Positions 4,990 through 56,854 of a stretch of 64,000 nucleotides of DNA are shown one piece after another. Source of the stretch: Candidatus Sulfotelmatobacter sp. (GTDB taxonomy: Bacteria > Verrucomicrobiota > Verrucomicrobiia > Limisphaerales > UBA11358); the NCBI GenBank assembly GCA_035485115.1, contig DATHOG010000166.1, positions 1,621-65,620 of the forward strand, given 5' to 3'. The notes under the pieces are model-generated. The model was given only the letters and a program-made list of their open reading frames with translations. It was not told where the DNA came from and did not search any database. Within the stretch, counting starts at the first letter, position 1; each line of letters starts with the position of its first letter. The position numbers and the translations under genes were made by a program.

Positions 4990-7900
4990 TCACTGAATCT
5001 GTACCCGATAAAATCTTGTGTTCGCGCCCGGCGGGTCGTTGAAGGTTTGCATGAAATTATTTCCCGCCAGCGCGCTGCCGAGCGGCAGCCAGGTGGGATC
5101 GGTCAATTGATTTTTATAAAGCACCTGATAATTGAATCCGGCTTGCGTGGGAAATGAGATCGATACATTGGTTCCGTTCGGGGCCGCGCTGGCGGCGAAA
5201 ATTGGAATCAACATCAGGAAATTAGCGTTGCAATCCGCCGTGGCTGAACCGGGTCGCACCAGCCGCAACGTATTGGTCGATCCATCGAGCTTCACTGTCA
5301 CGAGGTTCCCGGAATTATCTTTCAACGGGATATAACCATAAGTTTCCCACGCGGTGTTCGGGATGGAAAAAGTTCCCAGCAGGTTGGTTGTCTGACTGGT
5401 TGTGCCCCAGCCGCCAGTCACGCGTGAAAGAGTGCAGGTCGTCGCGCCGCCGCCGGCCGCCAGCCGCGCATAGAGATTGTAACTGCCCGCCGGAAAATGC
5501 CGGGTATAGTTCGCCCAGGCCCCGGCGCTGAAATATCCAATGCTGTAATCCGTCTTTCCGGTGCCGATGTAAGGCGGGCTGACTAGATCACCGTTGACCT
5601 CCGTGTCCATGCCGTTCTTGCGGTAAATATCCGTTCCAGCAAAATTGACCTGGTGGGTGTCCACATTGGTGATCGAAACCAATCCGGCATAGGCGTTGGT
5701 TTGCGGATTATCAATGTAATGCCCGCCGTTGTAATCGAAATCTTCCGCCTGCAGCACATAATTTCCAAAACTGAAAGTGTCAAAGGAACTGGTCATGGTG
5801 GCGACGTTCCCGTTCGTGTCGGTGGCGGTGATCACCGCCGTATAAACGGTGTTCGGCGCAAGCGGACAACCGACATTCCAGTTGGTGCTCGAGCCGCTAA
5901 AGACCAGGTTGCTCGCCACGATGCCGTTCAAGGTCACGATGATATTACTGGTGGCGATTCCCGCACCGGCCGCCAGATTGAAACTCAAAGTGTTGGTGGA
6001 CTGGCATAGGTTGGTGCCGTTGGGATAGACCGACGAGATTATCGGGATGCCCGGTCCCGAATAGCTGAAGGCCGCCTGCAAAGATTTCCCCGCCGAGCCG
6101 TTGACGTTGGCTGAAAAAATGACCTGCGGCGAAAGCTGCTGTACAGTGATGCCGGGATCAGCCGACAACAGGCCGACCGCCGCCCGATTGAGCGTCACCG
6201 TGATGGAGCCGGAGTTGGTTTGCGTCGGATCGGAAACGCCGATGGAAATCCCGTTTGTATTTTCCCAGGTGATCACCGAAGACTTGTTGTTCACGGAAAT
6301 CAAATCGGCGGAACTGTTTCCATTCGTCCAGAAATTCGCCGCCACCACCCCGAGCGAAACCTTTTTCACCGCCTGCACCGCCGGCGTATTGCTCAAGATC
6401 AGGATATCCGGCGCGTTCGCATAATTGCTGACGGTGGTCGTCGTGGCGTTCGGCAAGATGATGTAGGAATAAGATGCGTTGGTCGGAGTTGTGCCGTGGT
6501 GATAACAAAGCCGGAAGTAATCGTCGGTGCGGCTGGTGGAATCGTCGCCGGAATTGATTTGCGACCATGACCCGGTGTTGGCCGTAAACGACGCGACCAA
6601 GTTGGAATTGCCCGCCGGAATATAATATCCGCCGGTGCCGCTCAACGCGCACCATGACGCCGTGGCAACCGGCAGATTGGAACTCCAGCCCGTGGCCGGC
6701 GTGATGTTCGTGCCGTTGAGCGTGAACGTTTGCGTGATCGGATTTCCCAGCCGGCGGTTTTCCGCCGTCGTGTCCACGCCGGTGGCATCGCCGCAGGTGA
6801 TGCCCGCACCGAGGCAGACGATTTCGTTGTCGAGCATAAACCACGATTTTCTGCCGCTGACCGTGGTGCTCAATGGATGCAGCGACATGCCGGCGACGCC
6901 GTAAGTTTTGGCGACCTGCGCACCGCCGACCCAGTTCTGGTCGGTCGTCTTCGTTTGATTGGCGGAATTACCAAGCGTGTTGGTCTCCGCCGTGGTGCCG
7001 GGCAGATGATACGGATCAACCGTCGGCCAGAAATCGCTATTGAACTGGTTTTCCGTGCTGCCAATATAGAGATAATTCATGCCATCGCCCTGATGCCAGC
7101 CGTGCAGGTTGCCGCTGTTGATGGATTCATAATCCGCCGTGCGACTGGACTCCATGCTGATGGCGAAGCCGAAGCCGCTGCGCAAGGCTACTTCGCGACC
7201 CATGCTTGGGAAATGAAATTGTCCCGAGGCCAGGCGCGGGGAATTGATGAAATTGGTGAAGGCCGTGCCGATGGCCGGCGGCGCGAATTGTCCGATCTGC
7301 CCCATCGCCCCAAGCGTGCTCGAGCCGTCCCCGGATTCCGTTTCATAGGACCACGAGACGATCCGGCCGCGCACGGTGTCCATCATCGTTCCGTTGTAGA
7401 GAAACGGCTCGAAGGAATTGGTCACCCAGGCATAGACGTTGGCCAGGTTCGGGTCGGTGATTTTCCAATCGGTCGAGTTTTGCAAGAGGTCAACAATTTC
7501 CGGAATGTCGCCGAGCAAGACCAGCCCGTAATGGCCATTGTAAGCAATGCCGTCGATCGTGCCGTTGGAGTGAAAGACGAATGAGCCGTCGCTATAAAAA
7601 CCATCTCCCGTGGTCACGTACAAAAACACCGGGCTGAGATTGGTCTGGGCCGTGACCATGCTGTTGGTGCTCCGCCCGGCGATGCCGCGCAGCAACATGA
7701 CGAGCCCCTTGTCCGAAGTGTTGGCCCCGGTCATCCAGCCAAAGGTCGCATACGGGCTATAGGGATTAAAGTGATCGATCGAGACGCAGTAATTGGTGAT
7801 TTGGGTTCCCGTCAACGCCGGATAAAGCAGGAGCATCGCATCGTCCAGCGCCATGGGTCCGCTGTCTTCCCAATGAAACCAGTTGTCGTATTCGGTCGCG

Positions 7901-9774: not shown

Positions 9775-12264
9775 TCAAGGTTGCGGTGCGGAATCGTGAT
9801 AGGGAACACCCGCCTGATAAAGTTTCAGTTGCGATTGGATGACTTCGACCAGCGCGGCGTTCGACTGATCCCCGGCCAGTTGGATGGCATGTTGGGCGGC
9901 TGCGACCGCCTCGGGAAAGCGCCCGGCCTCGGCGTCGGCAGCGGCCAGGGTGCCGAGGATGTAAGGATTTCCGCTGTGCGTCAGTTGATCCGCCCGTTGG
10001 GCCAGTTCCACGGCCTTGCTTCCATCGCGCAACGAATCCTGCCGGCACGTCGCCAGAACCAATGCGAGGTTGTTCAACGTTTGCGCGTCCTCAGGATTCG
10101 ACTGCAACGCCTGCCCATATTGGACGATCGCTTCGCGCGGATCGGCTTTTTGGAGCAGGGCATTGCCGAGATTATAGTGTGCCCGGGCATAGTTTGGATC
10201 CAGCTGGACCGCCGTCTGGAATTGCTTGATTGCCTCGTCCACGTTTCCCGTTTGCAACAAGGCGCTGCCCAGGTTGTTGTGAATTTGCGCGTCGCCGGGA
10301 TTTAATTGAAGCGCCTTTTGGAAATGAAGCATCGCCCCGGCAACTTCATTTTTTTGAAGCAACGCGCTGCCCAGATTATTTTCGGCGTCCGGATAATTGG
10401 ACTGGATGTTCAGCGCCTTTTGGTAATCGGTAATCGCTTCGTCCACATTTCCTTTTTGCCACAGGGCGTTGCCGATATCGTAAAACGCCGGCGCATTGTC
10501 GGGATCAAGCTGGAGCGATTTTTGAAATTCGGCGATGGCCTCGTCCACGTTGCCCTTTTGAAGCAAGGCGTTGCCCAAATTATTATGGGCATCGGCTGCA
10601 TTGGGTTTTAGTTGAAGCGCCTTTTGGAAATGAAGCATGGCTTCATCCTTGGCCCCGTATCTGAACAAGGCATCACCCAGATTATCTTCAATTTCTCCCT
10701 CATCCGGATCAAGTTGGAGCGCCTTTTGGAAATGGAGTATGGCCTCATCTGTTTTTCCGCGTTTGAGCAGTGCGCTGCCTAGATTGTAATGGGCCTGGGC
10801 GTAGTTCGGGCGGATGAGCAGGGCCGTTTGGAATTGCTTGCTCGCTTCATCCAGATTGTCCGTTTGCAGGTAAGCAATCCCGAGATTGTTGTAGGCTGTT
10901 TCATATTGTGGATCCAGTTGAATGGTCTTTTTAAATTCGGAAATCGCATTGTCCGTGTCTCCACGGGAAAGCAGGATCAGGCCAAGTTCATTGTGCGCGA
11001 CAAAACAATCCGGGTTTTTTGCCAGCGTTGCTGTGCACAACGTTTCCCAATTCCGATAAACCCCGGCTTGATTCCATGTCAGTATTCCGACCAGGGCGAA
11101 AAATCCAAAACATGACAACCATTTTAAAATTTCATTCTTCGTCAGGGAATCCACAAGTTTTACCAGGGCTGCGGACACCAGCGCAATCGGGCCAACAATT
11201 GCAAAATACTGCCAATGATCGGCCACCAGCGAGTAACGGAAAAAATAAATATTAACGAATCCCAGCACCGGCAGGAGCATCAACACCGCATAGCCCAGCC
11301 CGAACAAAAACCTCCTCCCCCAACCGCGCCGGTAAATCCAGAAAATGGAAAATGAAACGATCAACAGGATGCCCGGCAGGTACGATAGGGCGTCAGCCGC
11401 GTCAATGTGCCAGAGTGGATAGACGGGAATGAGGCTGGCCGGCCAGACATCCTTGTAGAAATAAAACCAGACCGCCCGGCCCGCGCCGGCCAGCCGCGAC
11501 CAAAAATTATCCGTGCGCACCACGTCATGCGCGATGGCGACATGTGTTTGAAACCAGATGCTGGTGAGGCCGAGGATGAATGCCGCCGCAAAAAATGGAA
11601 TTGTGCGCCGGATGTCTTTCGGGTCAATCCGGTTGCGACGCCACCAGACGACGCCCAGAAGAATGAGCGGCAGCGGAGCCGCTTCAATTTTGCTCAACAA
11701 CGACAATAAAAATGCCGCAAACGAAAACCAATACCATCGCCGCGAACGGCCGTCATCGAATTTCAAATACGCGAGCAACGCCAGCGCGAAGAAAAAAAAC
11801 GACAACGTATTTTTCAATTCCGCGATCCAGGCCACGGACGCCACATTGACCGGATGCAGGGCGAAGAGAACGGCCGCGATCCTTGCCGCCGTGTCCGGGG
11901 GCGGCATCAGCTGCCGCAAAATCCGCCAGAGCAAGACCGCGTTGAGCACATGCAGCAAAATATTGACGAGGCGGTAGCCGGCCGGATTCATTCCCCACAT
12001 CCGCCATTCCAGCCAGAACGCATCGGACATGACGGGAAAGTAATCCGGCGTGATTTTTGTGGCCCAGAATTCATACCAGCCATGCGGGACCTTGATGAGC
12101 CGGTTCTCCACGCAAAGGCCGCCGTCGTCCCAGATAAAGCCGGGCTTTTCGATGGCGGGCGCGTTGGCCGCGGCCGGACGCCACGCCGGCAGATAAACCA
12201 TCAGCGTGGCGGCGAAGAGAAATAAAATGAACATCCAGCCGCGATGCCCAAGCGGGGTGTGCAT
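9775..12264 (-). CDS. Polytopic membrane protein with C-terminal TPR array (TMTC/PMT-like GT-C architecture)
   Basis: Start trimmed to MHTPLGHRGWMFILFLF (complement of 12262-12264), because the longer ORF overlaps the response-regulator gene. About 400 aa of multiple TM helices are followed by more than 10 canonical TPR units (A..YNLG.AL...G..DEAI..FQKALQL.P). Confidence 0.75.
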   Translation of the reverse strand: MHTPLGHRGWMFILFLFAATLMVYLPAWRPAAANAPAIEKPGFIWDDGGLCVENRLIKVPHGWYEFWATKITPDYFPVMSDAFWLEWRMWGMNPAGYRLVNILLHVLNAVLLWRILRQLMPPPDTAARIAAVLFALHPVNVASVAWIAELKNTLSFFFFALALLAYLKFDDGRSRRWYWFSFAAFLLSLLSKIEAAPLPLILLGVVWWRRNRIDPKDIRRTIPFFAAAFILGLTSIWFQTHVAIAHDVVRTDNFWSRLAGAGRAVWFYFYKDVWPASLIPVYPLWHIDAADALSYLPGILLIVSFSIFWIYRRGWGRRFLFGLGYAVLMLLPVLGFVNIYFFRYSLVADHWQYFAIVGPIALVSAALVKLVDSLTKNEILKWLSCFGFFALVGILTWNQAGVYRNWETLCTATLAKNPDCFVAHNELGLILLSRGDTDNAISEFKKTIQLDPQYETAYNNLGIAYLQTDNLDEASKQFQTALLIRPNYAQAHYNLGSALLKRGKTDEAILHFQKALQLDPDEGEIEDNLGDALFRYGAKDEAMLHFQKALQLKPNAADAHNNLGNALLQKGNVDEAIAEFQKSLQLDPDNAPAFYDIGNALWQKGNVDEAITDYQKALNIQSNYPDAENNLGSALLQKNEVAGAMLHFQKALQLNPGDAQIHNNLGSALLQTGNVDEAIKQFQTAVQLDPNYARAHYNLGNALLQKADPREAIVQYGQALQSNPEDAQTLNNLALVLATCRQDSLRDGSKAVELAQRADQLTHSGNPYILGTLAAADAEAGRFPEAVAAAQHAIQLAGDQSNAALVEVIQSQLKLYQAGVPYHDSAPQP

Positions 12265-29854: not shown

Positions 29855-30778
29855 GTGACCGTCCTTGAAGCGATCCAGAAAAGTGCGGATTTTCTCGGCA
29901 AAAAAAATGTCGAGTCCGCGCGGCTGAACGCCGAACTGTTGCTGGCGCACGTGCTCAAGCTGCCGCGCATGAAGTTGTATCTGAATTTCGAGCGTGTCCT
30001 GACTCCGGCGGAAACCGACGGATTGCGGGAACTGGTCAAACGACGTGGCAATCGTGAACCGCTGCAGCACATCGTTGGCTCAACCTCGTTTTGCGGCTGC
30101 GAGATCGCGGTGAACCGTCACGCACTGGTGCCGCGGCCGGAAACGGAGTTACTGGTGGAACTGGGCTGGAAGTTTCTGCATGGCCGGGTGGGCGGTCCCC
30201 CGTCCGGCGAGCGGCGCGCAGGGGACTGCGCGCCCTACCAGGCCCTCGACTTTGGCACGGGAACGGGTTGCATTGCGATTGCGCTAGCGGTGAAATGTCC
30301 GGAGGCAAGGGTTTCAGCGCTGGATGTTTCGGCGGAGGCCATTGCCTTGGCAAAACAAAATGCCGAAGCAAATAAGGTTTCGGAGCGGATCGAATTTGTA
30401 CAGGGCGATGGGTTTGCGGTATTTGATTTAGGGACGGCGACACGCCGTCCCTCCCAATTTGATTTGATCATTAGCAACCCGCCCTATATCGCTTCGGCGG
30501 ACATTGAAACGCTCCAGCCGGAAGTCCGCGATTTTGACCCGCGCATGGCATTGGACGGCGGCACGGATGGCCTGGATTTCTATCGCCGGCTGGCGGGCGG
30601 AGGAAAAAGCTTTCTCAAGCCGGATGGCAAAATCATGGTGGAATTCGGCGACGGCCAGGCGGAGGCGATAAAAAGCATCTTCGAAAGCGAAAAGTGGATT
30701 GTCGAAGCCGTGCAAGAGGACTACTCTCACCGCGCCAGATTTCTGGTGGCGAAATCCTCCTCATTTTCATCGTCATAA
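29855..30778 (+). CDS. prmC: Release-factor glutamine N5-methyltransferase PrmC (HemK)
   Basis: REPLQHIVGSTSFCG, LVPRPETE, LDFGTGTGCIA and ISNPPYI (the NPPY motif). Confidence 0.9.
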   Translation: MTVLEAIQKSADFLGKKNVESARLNAELLLAHVLKLPRMKLYLNFERVLTPAETDGLRELVKRRGNREPLQHIVGSTSFCGCEIAVNRHALVPRPETELLVELGWKFLHGRVGGPPSGERRAGDCAPYQALDFGTGTGCIAIALAVKCPEARVSALDVSAEAIALAKQNAEANKVSERIEFVQGDGFAVFDLGTATRRPSQFDLIISNPPYIASADIETLQPEVRDFDPRMALDGGTDGLDFYRRLAGGGKSFLKPDGKIMVEFGDGQAEAIKSIFESEKWIVEAVQEDYSHRARFLVAKSSSFSSS

Positions 30779-30831
30779 ATCGATTTGAGGATGAGGAAGA
30801 GGATGAGCATGAGAATGAATCTTTAAAAATC

Positions 30832-32094
30832 ATGGACAGTTTTTTGATCAAAGGCGGCGTGCCGTTGCACGGCACGGTGGAAATCAGCGGCAGCAAAAAT
30901 GCCGCGCTCCCAATCCTGGCGGCGACGCTCCTCACGGACGAACCGTGCGTCATCCGGCGCGTGCCGGACTTGAGCGACACGCGGTTCATGGTGAAGATCC
31001 TCGAATCGCTTGGTGCCACGGCGAAGTTCGAGGACGGCACCCTCACCGTTCACGCCAAAAAAATCAAGGGCTATGCGGACTATGATCTTGTGCGCAAAAT
31101 GCGCGGTTCCATATGCATCGCCGGCCCGTTGCTGGGCCGTCTGAGGAAGGCACGCATCTCGCTGCCTGGCGGTTGCATCATCGGCGCGCGGCCGATCAAT
31201 CTGCATTTGAAAGGTTTTCAGGCCCTCGGGGCTAAAATCAAGATTGAGGGCGGTTATGTGGATGCCGTGGCCAAAAAACTGGTCGGCGCGTCCATGTTCC
31301 TCGGCGGGCGTGCGGGTCCGACGGTGCTCGGCACCGCCAATCTGATGATGGCGGCGGCGCTGGCGGAGGGTATCACTGTGATTGAAAGTGCAGCTTGTGA
31401 ACCGGAAGTGGTGGACGTGGCATGTTTCCTCAATGCGATGGGCGCGAAGATCCATGGTGCCGGCAGCCCGACGGTGACGATCGAGGGCGTGGAAAAACTT
31501 CACGGCGCGGAACACGAGGTCATTCCTGACCGCATCGAGACGGCGACATTTATCATCGCCGCCGCCGCGACGAACGGCGAGATCACCATCAAAGGCGGAC
31601 GCGCCGACCACCTGCGCGCCGTGCTGGACAAATTGAACGAGGCGAATGTTTCCGTCGAGCGGCGCGGTGCCGACATGATCGTGAAGCGCAAAGGCAAATT
31701 GAAACCGGCAGACGTGACAACGCTGCCATATTCGGGTTTTCCGACGGATGTGCAGGCGCAGATGATGGCATTGCTCACTCTGGCGCCGGGCATCAGCATC
31801 ATCACGGAGCGGATCTTTGAATCGCGCTTCATGCACGTCAGCGAGCTGGCGCGCCTCGGGGCAGAAATCGAGATCGAGGGGCCGAGCGCGATCATCAAAG
31901 GCGGCAAGCCGTTGAGCGGCGCGCCGGTGATGGCGAGCGACCTGCGCGCGAGCGCGGCTTTGGTCATCGCGGGCCTGGCGGCGAAGGGCGCGACGCAGGT
32001 GAACCGCATCTACCATCTGGACCGCGGTTACGAAAAGATGGACGAGAAACTTCACAAGCTGGGTGCACGGATCCAGCGGGTGGAGGAGAAATGA
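30832..32094 (+). CDS. murA: UDP-N-acetylglucosamine 1-carboxyvinyltransferase MurA
   Basis: Start trimmed to MDSFLIKGGVPLHGTVEISGSKNAALPILAATLL (ATG 30832). Shows the catalytic-loop region KMRGSICIAGPLL and ends ...KLGARIQRVEEK*. Confidence 0.92.
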   Translation: MDSFLIKGGVPLHGTVEISGSKNAALPILAATLLTDEPCVIRRVPDLSDTRFMVKILESLGATAKFEDGTLTVHAKKIKGYADYDLVRKMRGSICIAGPLLGRLRKARISLPGGCIIGARPINLHLKGFQALGAKIKIEGGYVDAVAKKLVGASMFLGGRAGPTVLGTANLMMAAALAEGITVIESAACEPEVVDVACFLNAMGAKIHGAGSPTVTIEGVEKLHGAEHEVIPDRIETATFIIAAAATNGEITIKGGRADHLRAVLDKLNEANVSVERRGADMIVKRKGKLKPADVTTLPYSGFPTDVQAQMMALLTLAPGISIITERIFESRFMHVSELARLGAEIEIEGPSAIIKGGKPLSGAPVMASDLRASAALVIAGLAAKGATQVNRIYHLDRGYEKMDEKLHKLGARIQRVEEK

Positions 32095-32131: not shown

Positions 32132-32332
32132 ATGAATGCGACCTTGCCTGAACCCGAAATCGTGACGCGCAAAGGCAAACCCGTGTCCGTCATCATCCCC
32201 ATCAAGGACTACGAGGAGCTTTTGGAGCGCGTGGAGGATTCTGCCGACGTGACGTGGCTCAAGCGTGCCCGCAACAAACCGCTTCACTACCGTCCGCTGG
32301 AGGAATATCTTACCGCGCGCAAGCGCAAGTGA
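32132..32332 (+). CDS. Phd/YefM-RelB-like antitoxin
   Basis: 66 aa: MNATLPEPEIVTRKGKPVSVIIPIKDYEELLERVEDSADVTWLKRARNKPLHYRPLEEYL. Its stop lies 2 nt before the toxin ATG. Confidence 0.75.
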   Translation: MNATLPEPEIVTRKGKPVSVIIPIKDYEELLERVEDSADVTWLKRARNKPLHYRPLEEYLTARKRK

Positions 32333-32334
32333 CC

Positions 32335-32588
32335 ATGTATCGCGTGCGGCTTGAACGCGCCGCTGAAAAAGATCTCTCGCGGCTTTCAGCGGAGATTCAC
32401 GACCGTATTATAACGGCAATCCAAGCGCTGGCGGTGAATCCCCGTCCATCCGGCTGCCGGAAACTTACTGGCAGCAAGAACGACTGGGTATCCGCGTTGG
32501 CGATTACCGCGTTATCTATGAGATAGGCGACAAGATTCGCATCGTGCGCGTCAACCGCGTGCGCCACCGCCGCGAAGTGTATCGCTGA
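32335..32588 (+). pseudogene. RelE/ParE-family toxin interrupted by a 1-nt frameshift
   Basis: Frame 1 reads MYRVRLERAAEKDLSRLSAEIHDRIITAIQALAVNPRPSGCRKLTGSKNDW, then nonsense to a stop at 32526. The conserved C-terminus IRVGDYRVIYEIGDKIRIVRVNRVRHRREVYR* is in the adjacent frame (32490-32588). One base appears to be missing at the TGGGT run near 32487-32489. Confidence 0.7.
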
Positions 32589-32635
32589 AACAGTGCAAGC
32601 CGGGCGCGCGGATCCAGCGGGTGGAGGAAACGTAA
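32587..32635 (+). repeat. Relic duplicate of the murA 3' end (imperfect direct repeat of 32046-32094)
   Basis: GAAACAGTGCAAGCCGGGCGCGCGGATCCAGCGGGTGGAGGAAACGTAA versus the murA end GAAACTTCACAAGCTGGGTGCACGGATCCAGCGGGTGGAGGAGAAATGA. A 20-nt identical core is present. In the murA frame the relic would read KPGARIQRVEET* versus KLGARIQRVEEK*. Confidence 0.8.
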
Positions 32636-32720: not shown

Positions 32721-32772
32721 CTCGTCGCCGTGCTCATACCCGAATTAATTCGGGTATGAGCACGGCGACGAG
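32721..32772. repeat. Perfect 52-bp palindrome (26-bp arms, no spacer)
   Basis: CTCGTCGCCGTGCTCATACCCGAATT|AATTCGGGTATGAGCACGGCGACGAG. Lies in the spacer between the TA cassette and the minus-strand gene ending at 32801. It could act as a bidirectional terminator or a recombination/binding site. Confidence 0.9.
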
Positions 32773-33544: not shown

Positions 33545-34543
33545 ATGAGCCAACCGTTAAAAATGGTGACGTGTCCGGGTTGCGACGCCAAGACGTTCAT
33601 CCCCGGCGACCTGCCGCCGCTGGCGACGGAGCCGTGCAAGAAGTGCGGGCATGCGATCATGATGCCGATGGTGCTGCGGCAATTCGAGTTGCGGAGCAAG
33701 ATTGCGAGCGGCGGCATGGGCTCGGTGTATCGCGCGTGGGACATGATGCTGGAACGGATGGTGGCGGTGAAGCTGATGAAGAAGGAGATGCTCGATGATC
33801 CCAAGATGGTGGAGGCGTTTGCGGTGGAGGCGCGCGCGTGCGCGAAATTGAACCACCAGAACATCATCCACCTCTACACTTTCGACGAATGGCAGGGAGA
33901 ACGTTATCTGGTGATGGAACTGGCGGACCAGGGCAGCCTGGACACGCGCATCGAAAAATTGCATCGCGTGGACGAATTGCGCGTGCTGGACGTGGGCATC
34001 CAGATTTCCCAGGCGCTGGATGCGGCGTTGAAGCACGACATGCTGCATTGCGATATCAAGCCGGGCAACATCCTGTTCAACAACGAGCACCAGCCGAAAC
34101 TGGTGGACTTCGGCCTGGCACGCAAAACGGACGCGGAGGCGGAATCGGCGGAGTTCACGCGCGGGACGCCGTATTACGTGGCGCCGGAGAAGATCAAGCG
34201 CGAGCCGGAGACCTTTTTATCGGACATGTATTCGCTGGGGGCGACGCTGTATCACGCCATCACGGGACACGTGCCCTTTGATGCGCCGACGCCGGATGAA
34301 GTGGTGCAGGCGCATGTGTACACGCCACTCACGCCGCCGAACCAGGTGGTGCCGGAAATCTCGCAAGCCACGAGCGATGCGTTGTCCCGGTCGCTGGCAA
34401 AAAATCCCGGAGAACGTTTTCTAAGTTACGATGACTTCATCATGGCGCTGGAATCGGCGCGCAGCCAGTTGCTGTTCTATCAGTCCCAACAGCCGGAACA
34501 GCAGCAGCCCAAGCGCATGACGAGCTGGTGGCGCAGAAAGTAA
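33545..34543 (+). CDS. Ser/Thr protein kinase with N-terminal zinc ribbon
   Basis: CPGCDAKTF...CKKCGH, then Hanks-kinase motifs: GGMGSVYRA, VAVKLM, HCDIKPGNILF, DFGLA, GTPYYVAPE. Confidence 0.9.
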   Translation: MSQPLKMVTCPGCDAKTFIPGDLPPLATEPCKKCGHAIMMPMVLRQFELRSKIASGGMGSVYRAWDMMLERMVAVKLMKKEMLDDPKMVEAFAVEARACAKLNHQNIIHLYTFDEWQGERYLVMELADQGSLDTRIEKLHRVDELRVLDVGIQISQALDAALKHDMLHCDIKPGNILFNNEHQPKLVDFGLARKTDAEAESAEFTRGTPYYVAPEKIKREPETFLSDMYSLGATLYHAITGHVPFDAPTPDEVVQAHVYTPLTPPNQVVPEISQATSDALSRSLAKNPGERFLSYDDFIMALESARSQLLFYQSQQPEQQQPKRMTSWWRRK

Positions 34544-34673
34544 AACGGTTCTCCGCTATTTTCGGTGGAATGGCTGGAAGGGATTTAAACAACCGGGATT
34601 ACCTTATTTAAAATTCATGGAAACCACTTCAGTTTGCAAAGGAACTTCCACTTGTGAATTGTTTTTAACGGCG

Positions 34674-34716
34674 AATAAAAAACATACCCGCATTGATGCC
34701 GTGCAATGCGGGTATG
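34674..34716 (-). terminator. Rho-independent terminator inside the MITE-like element
   Basis: Stem CATACCCGCATTG (34683-34695) pairs with CAATGCGGGTATG (34704-34716) around an 8-nt loop. On the minus strand it is followed by TTTTTTATT. Confidence 0.6.
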
Positions 34717-34722
34717 TGAATT

Positions 34723-34896
34723 TTATAGATCATCGACAGGTTTGTTGACTTTGAAATGCAACGGGTGGTATCTAGGGGTATCTAGGATAAGGGTGGTATC
34801 CAGAATAATATAGCCGGGGCTGAATACCATCCTCTCCGTGAAACCTGCCGGAACGCCCTTTTTCAGGCCGGACAGAATGGCTTTGTCAGACATCAT
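34723..34896 (-). CDS. Possible 57-aa ORF carried by the MITE-like element
   Basis: MMSDKAILSGLKKGVPAGFTERMVFSPGYIILDTTLILDTPRYHPLHFKVNKPVDDL. It starts inside IR-R and ends just before the internal terminator. It is below the track length cutoff and no family is recognised, so it may be fortuitous. Confidence 0.2.
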   Translation of the reverse strand: MMSDKAILSGLKKGVPAGFTERMVFSPGYIILDTTLILDTPRYHPLHFKVNKPVDDL

Positions 34897-34928
34897 TCCA
34901 CCGAAAACAGCGAGGAACGAGTAAAACA

Positions 34929-34970
34929 GAAAAAAAAGGCGGACGATATCATCGTCCGCCTTTTGTTTTT
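34929..34970. terminator. Bidirectional rho-independent terminator
   Basis: A-run, then GGCGGACGAT (34938-34947), ATC, ATCGTCCGCC (34951-34960), then TTTTGTTTTT. Lies immediately downstream of the minus-strand gene ending at 34983 and of the right TSD copy of the MITE. Confidence 0.8.
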
Positions 34971-34982
34971 CAGGGGTAAAGC

Positions 34983-35390
34983 TTACTGGGGCGGGGCGTT
35001 GGTCGAGGTGGTCGAATCATCGGCTTTCTTTTTCTTCATCATTTTCCCATCGGCGACGCGCGTGGCGTTGAACTTGCCGGAGTCGTCTTTCTTGCCGGCG
35101 GCGCTGACGTAATCGCCGACCGCGATATCGGAAAGCGTGGCGGGCTTACCGTCCTTGGTGATCTTGGTTTCGGAGGTGATGACAATGGTGGTTTCGCCGA
35201 CGGTGATGGTCATGGCGGCGGTGTCCACAGAGGCGACTTTGCCGTGAATGCCACCAGCATGATGATGGGGCGCAGTGGCGGCCGGGGCGCCGTTAGTAGA
35301 AGCATCCTGAGCGCGGGTGACTGAGGGGATCGCAACCAAGGCAGCGGTCAAAAGACCGAGCAGGGCGACTTTCGTGATTTGTTTATTCAT
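34983..35390 (-). CDS. Small secreted protein (DUF5666-like beta-barrel suspected)
   Basis: 135 aa with signal peptide MNKQITKVALLGLLTAALVAIPSVTRA, an HHHAGG stretch, ...ITVGETTIVITSETKITKDGKPATLSDIAVGDYVSAAG..., and a Lys-rich tail. Confidence 0.6.
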   Translation of the reverse strand: MNKQITKVALLGLLTAALVAIPSVTRAQDASTNGAPAATAPHHHAGGIHGKVASVDTAAMTITVGETTIVITSETKITKDGKPATLSDIAVGDYVSAAGKKDDSGKFNATRVADGKMMKKKKADDSTTSTNAPPQ

Positions 35391-54815: not shown

Positions 54816-55820
54816 TCAGCCCGCCAAAACTTTTTCGTAAATGGTCTTGAACTGGCGCGCCACGTCCGGCCATGTCGCGGGTTTCGGCGGCGCGGGCAAG
54901 GTCGGCGCGTCCGCATAAAATTTTTTCAACGCGCCGGCGGTGGCGGCCACGGAATCCGTCACCGGGCAAAATTGCACGCCGGCGTCGAACGTGCTGCGCG
55001 CCCAGGGCAAATCACTTAATAAAAGCGGGCATTCGCAGGCGGAGGCCTCGAGCGCGGACAGGCTCAGGCTTTCCATCGCGCTCAGCAAAACAAAGCCCCG
55101 TGCGGCGCGGTAAACGTTTGCGAGCGCGGCCCGGTCGGAGATGCCGCCTTCGTAGCGGACGAGTTTTGGGTTTTGCTTCGCGAGCGCGAAGAATGCCTGT
55201 GCGTAGGCATCGTTTTCCGCGTAAGCCTTGCCGATGACCCATACCGGCGTTTGCGCGGTGACCGCGGCTTGCGCGAGTTCCAGCACCCGTTTGCGTTCGG
55301 TGATCGTCGCAGTGCACACGAGCCATTCACCGCGTTCGGTTTTGGGCGCGGCGAAGAATTCCGGCTCGACGCCGTTGGGCACCACAAAAATCTTTTCCGG
55401 CAACGCGCCGAATTTCAACTGCATCAATTGTTTTTCCCACGGCGTCAACGCCACGAGCGCGTCGGCGAGCCGGAAACTTTCCCAGCCGAAGGCCGTGGCG
55501 AGCGCCTTCGGGGCGAAGGTTTCAACACTACGGCGGAAGACGCGCCGGAGGTTCCGCTGGAAAGGAGTATGCGAGCCGGCGGCGGTCAGGAGTTCGGCCA
55601 TGACGACCTTGATGCCTTTTTGTCTGGCGAACTGCATCTGGTCAACCGGCATGCGCCCGACAAAATGGATCACATCCGCGGTCTGGGTGCCGTCCCACCA
55701 GCGCATGAATTCGGCTTGAATCCCAATCCCCTGCAACGCCAGCCGGGTCTGGTCAATCTGGGTTTGGACGCCGCCATGCGCCAACATGGCGGGAACATGG
55801 CGGTCGAACACGATTTTCAT
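54816..55820 (-). CDS. Glycosyltransferase, GT4/GT1-fold (tandem paralog A)
   Basis: MKIVFDRHVPAMLAHGGVQTQI...VVPNGVEPEFF...ERKRVLELA...GFVLLSAMESLSLSALEASACECPLLLSDLPW. Confidence 0.75.
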   Translation of the reverse strand: MKIVFDRHVPAMLAHGGVQTQIDQTRLALQGIGIQAEFMRWWDGTQTADVIHFVGRMPVDQMQFARQKGIKVVMAELLTAAGSHTPFQRNLRRVFRRSVETFAPKALATAFGWESFRLADALVALTPWEKQLMQLKFGALPEKIFVVPNGVEPEFFAAPKTERGEWLVCTATITERKRVLELAQAAVTAQTPVWVIGKAYAENDAYAQAFFALAKQNPKLVRYEGGISDRAALANVYRAARGFVLLSAMESLSLSALEASACECPLLLSDLPWARSTFDAGVQFCPVTDSVAATAGALKKFYADAPTLPAPPKPATWPDVARQFKTIYEKVLAG

Positions 55821-55837: not shown

Positions 55838-56854
55838 TCAATCCACGACGCGGCCGGCGATGACATCCTGATAAATGGTTTGTAACTGCCGGGCGACCTG
55901 CTGCCAGGTTGCCGGCGGCGGGGGCGGCGGCAGCGCGGGTGCTTCGGCATGGAAAATTTTCAGCGCGCCGGCGGTTTTGGCGGCGTCAACATTTACGGGG
56001 CAATAGCGGGCATGTTCCCCGAAGGTGCTTCGCGCCCAGGGCAGGTCGCTCAAAAATAGAGGGCAGCCGCTGGCGGCAGCTTCTTCCGCCGACAAACTGC
56101 GCGTTTCCATGGTGCTTAAAAGCACGAAGCCGCGCGCCGAGCGGTAAATCCGGGCCAGCTCCGCGCGGTCGCTGATGCCGCCGGCATATTTGATGTAACG
56201 GGGATTTTTTTCCGCGATCGAGAAAAAACGCTTCGCATAAGGATCGTCTTCCGAGTAAGCGCGTCCCAAAACCTGCAATGGCGTTTGGGCGATGACGGCG
56301 GCCCCGGCCAGTTCCAACACGCGTTTGCGTTCGGTGATGGTGGCGGTGCAGACGAGCCATTCATTGCGGGGAACCGGCGGTGTTTGAAAAAAAACATCCT
56401 CGACGCCGTTGGGCACCACAAAAATTTTCCCGGGACGGACGCCGAACTTGTAATGGAAAAGGTATTTTTCCCATCCGGTGTTGGCGATGCAGGCGTCGGC
56501 GATCCGGTAACTTTCCCAGCCGAACGCCTGCGCCATTATACGCGGCGCAAAATGTTCCACCCCCCAGCGGAAGACGCGACGCGCGCCACGCTGCCACGGT
56601 GTCTGGGAGCCTTGCCCGGTGAGGATGTTGGCGTGGACGACCTTGATCTTTTTCTGCCGGGCGAAGTTGATCTGATCCACGGGCATGATGCCGACGTAAT
56701 GGATCAGGTCACCCTCTTGTTTTTCATCCCACCAGCGGAGCGGTTCGACGTCGACCCCGATTTCGGCAAGCGCCGCCATGGTGCGTTGAATTTGCACGGC
56801 CTGTCCACCGTGGGCGAGGGAAAACGGCAGCGAACAGTGGAACAGGATCTTCAC
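55838..56854 (-). CDS. Glycosyltransferase, GT4/GT1-fold (tandem paralog B)
   Basis: MKILFHCSLPFSLAHGGQAVQI...VVPNGVEDVFF...ERKRVLELA...GFVLLSTMETRSLSAEEAAASGCPLFLSDLPW. Collinear with paralog A along its full length. Confidence 0.75.
   Translation of the reverse strand: MKILFHCSLPFSLAHGGQAVQIQRTMAALAEIGVDVEPLRWWDEKQEGDLIHYVGIMPVDQINFARQKKIKVVHANILTGQGSQTPWQRGARRVFRWGVEHFAPRIMAQAFGWESYRIADACIANTGWEKYLFHYKFGVRPGKIFVVPNGVEDVFFQTPPVPRNEWLVCTATITERKRVLELAGAAVIAQTPLQVLGRAYSEDDPYAKRFFSIAEKNPRYIKYAGGISDRAELARIYRSARGFVLLSTMETRSLSAEEAAASGCPLFLSDLPWARSTFGEHARYCPVNVDAAKTAGALKIFHAEAPALPPPPPPATWQQVARQLQTIYQDVIAGRVVD

Follow-up and report, generated by a model that had tools for sequence, protein, structure and literature searches.

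Evidence for an ISL3-derived miniature transposable element inserted at the stop codon of a bacterial Ser/Thr kinase gene

Insertion sequences (ISs) of the ISL3 family, as compiled in ISfinder, have GG ends and 8-bp direct repeats, and several groups of repeats resembling MITEs (miniature transposable elements with inverted repeats), namely the Correia elements of Neisseria, ERIC/IRU and RUP, are able to act on neighbouring transcripts. For the ISL3 family a MITE has been described in Microcystis aeruginosa PCC 7806, a non-coding element of 187 nt and thus below 600 bp, flanked by 8-nt direct repeats and partnered by an ISL3 transposase with matching ends; its imperfect ends start with GGCTCTTCG, a stem-loop is predicted and incidental open reading frames (ORFs) overlap the ends (PMC11448079). 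Here we analyzed a 64-kb stretch of DNA (64,000 nt of contig DATHOG010000166.1, termed the window in the following), in which positions 34547–34919 very probably represent a non-autonomous ISL3-type MITE that inserted at the stop codon of a Ser/Thr protein kinase gene with duplication of the octamer AGTAAAAC.

The element comprises 373 bp, with bounds delineated from the structure of its terminal inverted repeats (TIRs) and target-site duplications as well as from the empty sites of orthologous loci. A repeat search yielded inverted arms at 34548–34572 and 34894–34918 (25 nt, 88% complementary), and comparison with the wider family extends each TIR to 26 nt: the left one occupies 34547–34572 on the plus strand with the sequence GGTTCTCCGCTATTTTCGGTGGAATG, the right one 34894–34919 on the minus strand, its reverse complement reading CGTTCCTCGCTGTTTTCGGTGGAATG. 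The two arms agree at 22 of 26 positions; compared with the TIR of the autonomous ISL3 element at locus L093, described below, each has 24 of 26 in common. The window has just two occurrences of the inner 14-mer TTTTCGGTGGAATG, one per strand, at both TIRs. The original prediction had recognized the inverted repeat itself, although its left arm of 25 nt at 34547–34571 was 1 nt off the repeat search and one nucleotide too short.

Both ends are flanked by the octamer AGTAAAAC, which has three occurrences in the whole window. The left copy at 34539–34546 adjoins the GG end of the left TIR, and the identical right copy at 34920–34927 adjoins the right TIR. The duplication and its right copy had been placed correctly beforehand, whereas the left copy had been put at 34538–34545. 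Because the TIRs are 26 nt long, the octamers adjoin the element without a gap, and its length is 373 bp rather than the 374 bp first proposed. The chance of a perfect 8/8 duplication at any one element is about 1/65,536 and the same layout recurs at many unrelated loci, so that the architecture is beyond chance. With a GC content of 44.8%, the element also stands apart from the window (57.5%). As had been noted from the letters, it contains no transposase: the only ORFs of at least 40 aa have 57 and 43 aa, neither with a family match, and tblastx and blastx comparisons of the element with ISL3 transposases for transposase remnants returned nothing beyond 8 residues.

The left octamer overlaps the end of the Ser/Thr protein kinase gene (33545–34543, plus strand, 332 aa; Pfam Pkinase E = 1.7e-47) and provides its TAA stop codon at 34541–34543, exactly as predicted. 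As this TAA is regenerated by the duplication, the insertion leaves the kinase protein as it was, with the end ...WWRRK-stop, and orthologues with 75–86% amino acid identity share the carboxy-terminus ...WWRR(K/Q)-stop. Downstream follows a convergent gene for a DUF5666 protein (34983–35390, minus strand, 135 aa; Pfam DUF5666 E = 1.3e-10). The bidirectional terminator that had been proposed beyond the element lies at 34934–34964 with a terminator-like score on both strands, constituting the native two-way terminator common to the convergent kinase and DUF5666 genes.

To delineate the state before insertion, we retrieved 80 loci with close kinase relatives (75–86% amino acid identity) from public metagenomes. 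All 80 lack the TIR, even with up to 6 mismatches allowed. About 45 still have DUF5666 as convergent neighbour, and in these the kinase stop and the portion of DUF5666 that aligns are 59–131 nt apart, compared to about 500 nt in the window, with L171 (347 nt) as an outlier. Directly 3' of the kinase stop, the empty loci carry the terminator GGCGGACG...CGTCCGCC; among the DUF5666-keeping loci inspected by sequence, the stop is directly followed by AAAAAGGCGGACG..CGTCCGCC in 31 of 32, the exception being L171. In a direct comparison, the orthologous sequences are ...TGGTGGCGNNNNNN TAA AAAAAGGCGGACGTTGCCGTCCGCC..., and removing 34547–34927 from the window gives ...TGGTGGCGCAGAAAGTAA AACAGAAAAAAAAGGCGGACGATATCATCGTCCGCC, in agreement with these empty sites. 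Furthermore, a joint from 34534 to 34932, corresponding to the empty site, is present in contigs of the sequencing runs X17 and X18, and loose ends in runs X27 and X5 as well as in the RNA run X7 go from the stop codon directly into the terminator hairpin. The orthologous loci thereby display the compact convergent gene pair that the original prediction had taken as the pre-insertion state, and where the same sequence without flanking duplication could have been encountered, the sequence is absent and the site empty. The segment might alternatively be an ancestral intergenic spacer, its inverted repeat and octamers being chance likenesses, a view with which its single occurrence within the window agrees. 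We consider this explanation negligible, as about 45 orthologous loci lack the sequence and have the far shorter gap given above (347 nt even in L171), and a large IS/MITE family has these same element ends as its conserved termini.

The insertion is no assembly artefact, since unitigs of the source metagenome cross both element ends at even depth and the same insertion, with all 373 bp identical, is present in an ENA assembly made independently (L001). It is also common to a somewhat diverged strain, because an RNA contig of the peat metatranscriptome X33, about 91% identical and covering 34848–35012, carries the right end of the element. Judged from this contig, the insertion appears old enough to be common to strains about 9% diverged.

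The family to which the ends belong was delineated by scanning one genome per species, 185,579 species in total, with the pattern CGCTNTTTTCGGTGGAATG. Related TIRs, anticipated by the original prediction, proved numerous: at least 116 loci were obtained, compared to about 17 chance matches expected by our own estimate. Among the loci listed, the hosts are mostly metagenome-assembled genomes (MAGs) of Verrucomicrobiota, often with several contigs per MAG, along with a few Acidobacteriota. In 92 of the 118 matches listed the conserved block reaches outward to GGTTCYY, giving the terminus GGTTCYYCGCTGTTTTCGGTGGAATG, and the 20 nt outside GGTTCYY are devoid of conservation, indicating a sharp element boundary. 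Within this boundary the interiors fall into many unrelated groups; several MAGs hold many copies, among them VER1 with at least 8 that have one common interior and differing flanks. Pairing forward and reverse ends among the loci listed resulted in at least 30 short elements with both ends, ranging from 145 to 508 bp. Perfect 8/8 duplications flank 10 of the 30 paired elements listed, all of different sequence, and another 7 of the 30 have duplications at 7/8, so that different octamers at different copies, likewise anticipated, are indeed observed. The perfect octamers of the other elements are GGCCTTTG, CGCAAGTT, TTACACAA, TTCGAGTT, TGAAAATT, CTGCTTCG, CAGTTTTA, TTAAAAGG and AATGGATT; the tenth is the window's own, read in L001 as GTTTTACT, the reverse complement of AGTAAAAC. 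No paper in the literature searched contains the TIR string.

Several further observations concern the members of this family. Many other MITE subfamilies bounded by these ends, represented by loci L003, L029, L036, L040, L052, L057 and L075, among others, have in common a short inner hairpin (A/G)ATCCC-NNNN-GGGAT followed by ..TCAGCCCAGGGTTGC, a motif that might serve for subterminal binding or else represent a structured RNA. The same 26-nt terminus is found outside Verrucomicrobiota in an Anaerolineae MAG (L002), which carries an ISL3 transposase too, and in Acidobacteriota MAGs (L012, L020, L050 and L079), pointing to either horizontal spread or mis-binned contigs. Many copies of the Verrucomicrobiota-type MITE are held by co-assembled Third Party Annotation (TPA) bins that carry the names "uncultured Klebsiella sp." or "Bifidobacteriaceae" (L004, L013, L021, L034, L039, L046, L053, L090, L114 and others), whose organism labels look unreliable. 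At L024, around 6480–6540, two family ends lie about 20 nt apart in opposite orientation, as two elements that are adjacent or nested.

Several loci run from the TIR into an ORF starting with MTPEKLFHELLGLGLNWEV, and one of them provides an autonomous partner with the same TIRs, for which the original prediction had suggested a search. Positions 1–1330 of L093, from the Verrucomicrobiia MAG JOPF050, form a complete IS of 1330 bp with the ends GGTTCTTCGCTGTTTTCGGTGGAATG and TATTCCACCGAAAACAGCGAAGAACC. Its ORF of 420 aa contains the Pfam domains DDE_Tnp_ISL3 (5e-63), HTH_Tnp_ISL3 and Zn_ribbon_ISL3, and reaches 289 bits against the NCBIfam model NF033550 "ISL3 family transposase", for which the cut-off is 180. 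The soil metagenomes in which the organism of the window is found also contain relatives of this IS with 80–88% nucleotide identity. Based on these shared ends, the element would be mobilized in trans by an ISL3 transposase.

One stretch within the element connects it to the transposase gene itself: the 22 nt at 34837–34858 match the genes of L093, L002 and L043 at 20 of 22 positions, at the homologous codons for VRENCRNA and in the same orientation (E ~7e-4), and may weakly point to an origin by internal deletion. Together with the finding that the exact 373-bp sequence is present at this locus only, this match would also suit a one-off ISL3 copy that lost its transposase gene in place and never gave rise to an amplified MITE family. 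The three IS copies are, however, mutually homologous, rendering the match a single observation, and the remaining interior is devoid of similarity to the IS. Moreover, the source metagenome (X1) contains at least five other contigs that are 80–88% identical to 34547–34651, a part of the non-IS interior; they begin at 34547 or 34548, at the element end, and differ in the flanks outside. Because these diverged contigs share the interior within different flanks, the deleted form must have spread after arising, and we regard a one-off copy as improbable.

These sibling contigs have depths of 3.2, 10.2, 2.9, 9.9 and 11, three of them thus at 9.9–11 and close to the value of about 10 for the source genome, which fits a small MITE family in the same genome, metagenome contigs as such not being assignable to one genome. 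Some siblings lack 94–167 nt between the hairpin described below and the right end, with joints from 34723 to 34891, from 34745 to 34840 and from 34773 to 34897. The resulting variable segment (34724–34890), missing from at least one sibling, contains the 22-nt transposase-gene match as well as three GG(TG)GTATCYAG direct repeats at 34763–34803, which our repeat search found where they had been described. The interior subfamily of the window element was observed in runs X1, X3, X5 and X33 only. Comparing the interior by blastn with 117 loci (L001, which is this locus in the other assembly, and L002–L117, the 116 with TIRs) returned the TIRs only, in addition to a similar hairpin in the MAG loci L032 and L116, where it lies about 125 nt further from a variant TIR; a regular-expression search for the hairpin over the retrieved loci, including the 80 orthologous ones, gave nothing further. 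Querying 34547–34775 as six-frame pseudo-proteins for siblings called as ORFs resulted in 763 word-sharing candidates, none with E ≤ 10.

The ORF of 57 codons that had been reported to start in the right TIR is present at 34723–34896 on the minus strand, with its ATG at the inner end of that TIR. Read as a genuine micro-gene, running from the right TIR to a terminator of its own, it would turn the element into a mobile insertion cassette with cargo. This notion can draw on a GGTGGA ahead of the ATG, on a stop 5 nt before a canonical minus-strand terminator and on a gene caller that predicted the ORF on two contigs. Against it, the only match among 5.8 billion clustered proteins is the ORF itself, the exact protein being confined to this locus on 2 contigs, and no Pfam match was obtained. 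Furthermore, most of the ORF is missing from sibling copies, whose deletions of 94–167 nt do not keep the frame, and its ATG is nothing more than the inner TIR end, which is conserved throughout the family. From these sequence comparisons the ORF is almost certainly incidental and not a gene, and a cargo-bearing cassette appears very improbable.

The most prominent feature of the interior is a hairpin at 34682–34717 with a perfect 14-bp stem (7 G-C pairs) and an 8-nt loop. Its fold energies of −23.9 and −25.6 kcal/mol correspond to z-scores of about −4.7. On the minus strand the stem is preceded by an A-run and followed by the T-run TTTTTTATT, which is better than the GAATTTTATA following the stem on the plus strand. 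By its GC-rich stem-loop and U-run, the hairpin is predicted to be an intrinsic terminator. The strong minus-strand terminator described earlier is thus recovered, but the hairpin is terminator-like on both strands. It is plausible that the element imports regulatory signals in the form of this two-way terminator-like hairpin.

Taken together, the following sequence of events can be proposed. An ISL3-type DDE transposase, supplied by an autonomous element elsewhere, would recognize both 26-nt ends (GGTTCYYCGCTGTTTTCGGTGGAATG), and staggered cuts 8 bp apart would allow the element to insert into the octamer AGTAAAAC, which would have overlapped the kinase stop just ahead of the shared terminator. 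Repair would then duplicate the octamer, leaving the kinase with its TAA and full reading frame. Likely consequences concern transcription: the kinase mRNA would encounter its first terminator-like signal only after about 140 nt of MITE sequence, formerly 0–10 nt after the stop, and convergent DUF5666 transcripts would face the MITE hairpin as a second barrier behind the native terminator, before the kinase. The X33 RNA contig, which runs across the native terminator into the right MITE end, hints at read-through from the DUF5666 side, although contigs do not record the strand and DNA may be present in the library.

The hairpin also forms the core of a repeat module at about 34685–34745 that is far commoner than the MITE. 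In X1 its depth is 570–700 compared to 10, in X18 it is 351 compared to about 20, and in X17 it is 45 compared to 14. Of 36 sampled 31-mers of the element, 3, most likely those of the hairpin, recurred in over 20 runs from soil, moss, peat and rhizosphere. Other copies of the module consist of (A/G)GACTCGACAAAT, 10–12 nt, CTATAAAATTC, the hairpin and a T-run, and are divergent beyond. We also considered whether the module might be where a paralogous coding gene ends (its 3' end), and rejected this, because the spacing between the conserved GACAAAT block and the hairpin varies by 1–2 nt among copies, which speaks against coding sequence. At gathering scores the window has no Rfam match; scanned permissively, 34300–35200 showed nothing but sub-threshold noise. 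Scanning viral_contigs with the hairpin core yielded 22 unrelated chance palindromes. The module may constitute a core common to one clade of MITEs or, independent of them, a terminator-like repeat that they picked up. Going further, it could be a separate repeat with tens of copies per genome, and the GGTTCYYCGCTGTTTTCGGTGGAATG-bounded elements a large undescribed MITE superfamily across Verrucomicrobiota and Acidobacteriota that gathers two-way terminators and scatters them between genes; this extended idea is speculative, and we hold it to be rather unlikely.

Some observations weigh against an ISL3-type MITE with the properties proposed here. The left end is GG, as in the family, but the right end reads CG in the window, its outermost base departing from the family GG. 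Within the window there is no second copy of either the TIR or the interior, and the copy number in the source genome rests on metagenome contig depths that are not tied to one genome. An 8-bp duplication was confirmed on none of the autonomous copies, which are cut or decayed: L093 starts at the contig end, L002, L010, L055 and L089 are cut, L043 is decayed and the left flank of L008 lies beyond the retrieved block. Finally, metatranscriptome contigs at the locus are sparse and hold no strand information. Regarding the right end, the plus strand of the window carries a G at 34919, whereas the related-strain X33 contig has the consensus C, and because of this difference the window copy probably mutated at its terminal base after insertion. 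With this base changed, the copy may no longer be mobile. On the other side, TIR and duplication anatomy, empty sites, family-wide 8-bp duplications, an autonomous ISL3 partner and sibling copies all favour the MITE put forward in the original prediction.

Apart from the element, we observed several other repeats in the window. Upstream of the kinase, the last 42 nt of a murA-like gene of the EPSP_synthase family (32046–32087) recur with 83% identity at 32587–32628, 541 bp downstream. The two repeats enclose a small Phd/RelB-like antitoxin gene (32132–32332) together with a gene for a ParE-family toxin, a layout that looks like a cassette integrated into the 3' end of the murA-like gene and bringing a replacement end. 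The toxin gene (32337–32588) is seemingly broken by a 1-nt deletion near 32487 and stops after 63 aa; read through the deletion, it covers the full Pfam ParE_toxin profile (1–89 of 89, E = 4.8e-14). Between this toxin-antitoxin cassette and an ORF of 137 aa lies a perfect 52-bp palindrome (32721–32772; 26+26 nt without a loop, CTCGTCGCCGTGCTCATACCCGAATT/AATTCGGGTATGAGCACGGCGACGAG). The independent assembly L001 contains it as well, and the orthologous locus L140 has an imperfect version. Upstream of murA, at about 30745–30820, a similar palindrome has pyrimidine-rich and purine-rich arms and the centre AATCGATT. Further away, a run of 102-bp units with 60–74% identity at 10127–10953 is consistent with coding tandem 34-residue repeats such as tetratricopeptide repeats, and the segments 54986–55494 and 56020–56528, which are 71–92% identical and 1034 bp apart, probably reflect a tandem gene duplication.

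The locus offers a clean example in which the MITE can be proven from sequence alone, with empty site, duplication, partner IS and siblings considered together, and the 8-bp duplication shows how an element can hit a stop codon and yet spare the gene. With the 26-nt terminus as a simple marker, a very widespread ISL3/MITE group that apparently has no name can be recognized in Verrucomicrobiota of soil and freshwater, which should help annotation where spurious small ORFs and contig breaks in MAGs are concerned. A new biological question would arise only if the idea of terminator-carrying elements were true.

In comparison with known systems, the element is an ISL3-derived MITE of the kind already described in Microcystis, resulting from an ordinary type of event. 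Like the Microcystis MITE, it is non-coding and below 600 bp, its imperfect ends start with GGTTCTTCG (compared to GGCTCTTCG), and it has an 8-nt duplication, an ISL3 partner, a stem-loop and an ORF overlapping an end. It differs in its lineage, which is probably Verrucomicrobiota instead of Cyanobacteria, in an unrelated interior and in its length of 373 bp; in addition, its 26-nt ends are common to many interior subfamilies across at least two phyla, and the window copy, although placed on a stop codon, leaves the gene intact. With autonomous ISL3-family ISs, exemplified here by L093 (1–1330), it shares the 26-nt ends (24/26), GG at its left terminus and an 8-bp duplication as compiled for the family, whereas it lacks the transposase, with at most 22 nt possibly deriving from the transposase gene. 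Similar to the Correia, ERIC/IRU and RUP repeats, it is a small TIR-bounded repeat between convergent genes with a strong internal stem-loop and a predicted effect on transcripts, but those repeats either go back to different IS lineages or lack a known partner, and their duplications are of other lengths. The hairpin module, in turn, resembles the REP/RAYT palindromes in being short, high-copy and located outside genes (PMC3733652). Unlike these palindromes, it is devoid of a GTAG/CGTC head, as neither tetranucleotide was found at the stem ends when 34675–34730 was read directly, the stem beginning with ACAT... and ending with ...ATGT, and the conserved module reaches to one side only, by about 40 nt, and stops at a T-run.

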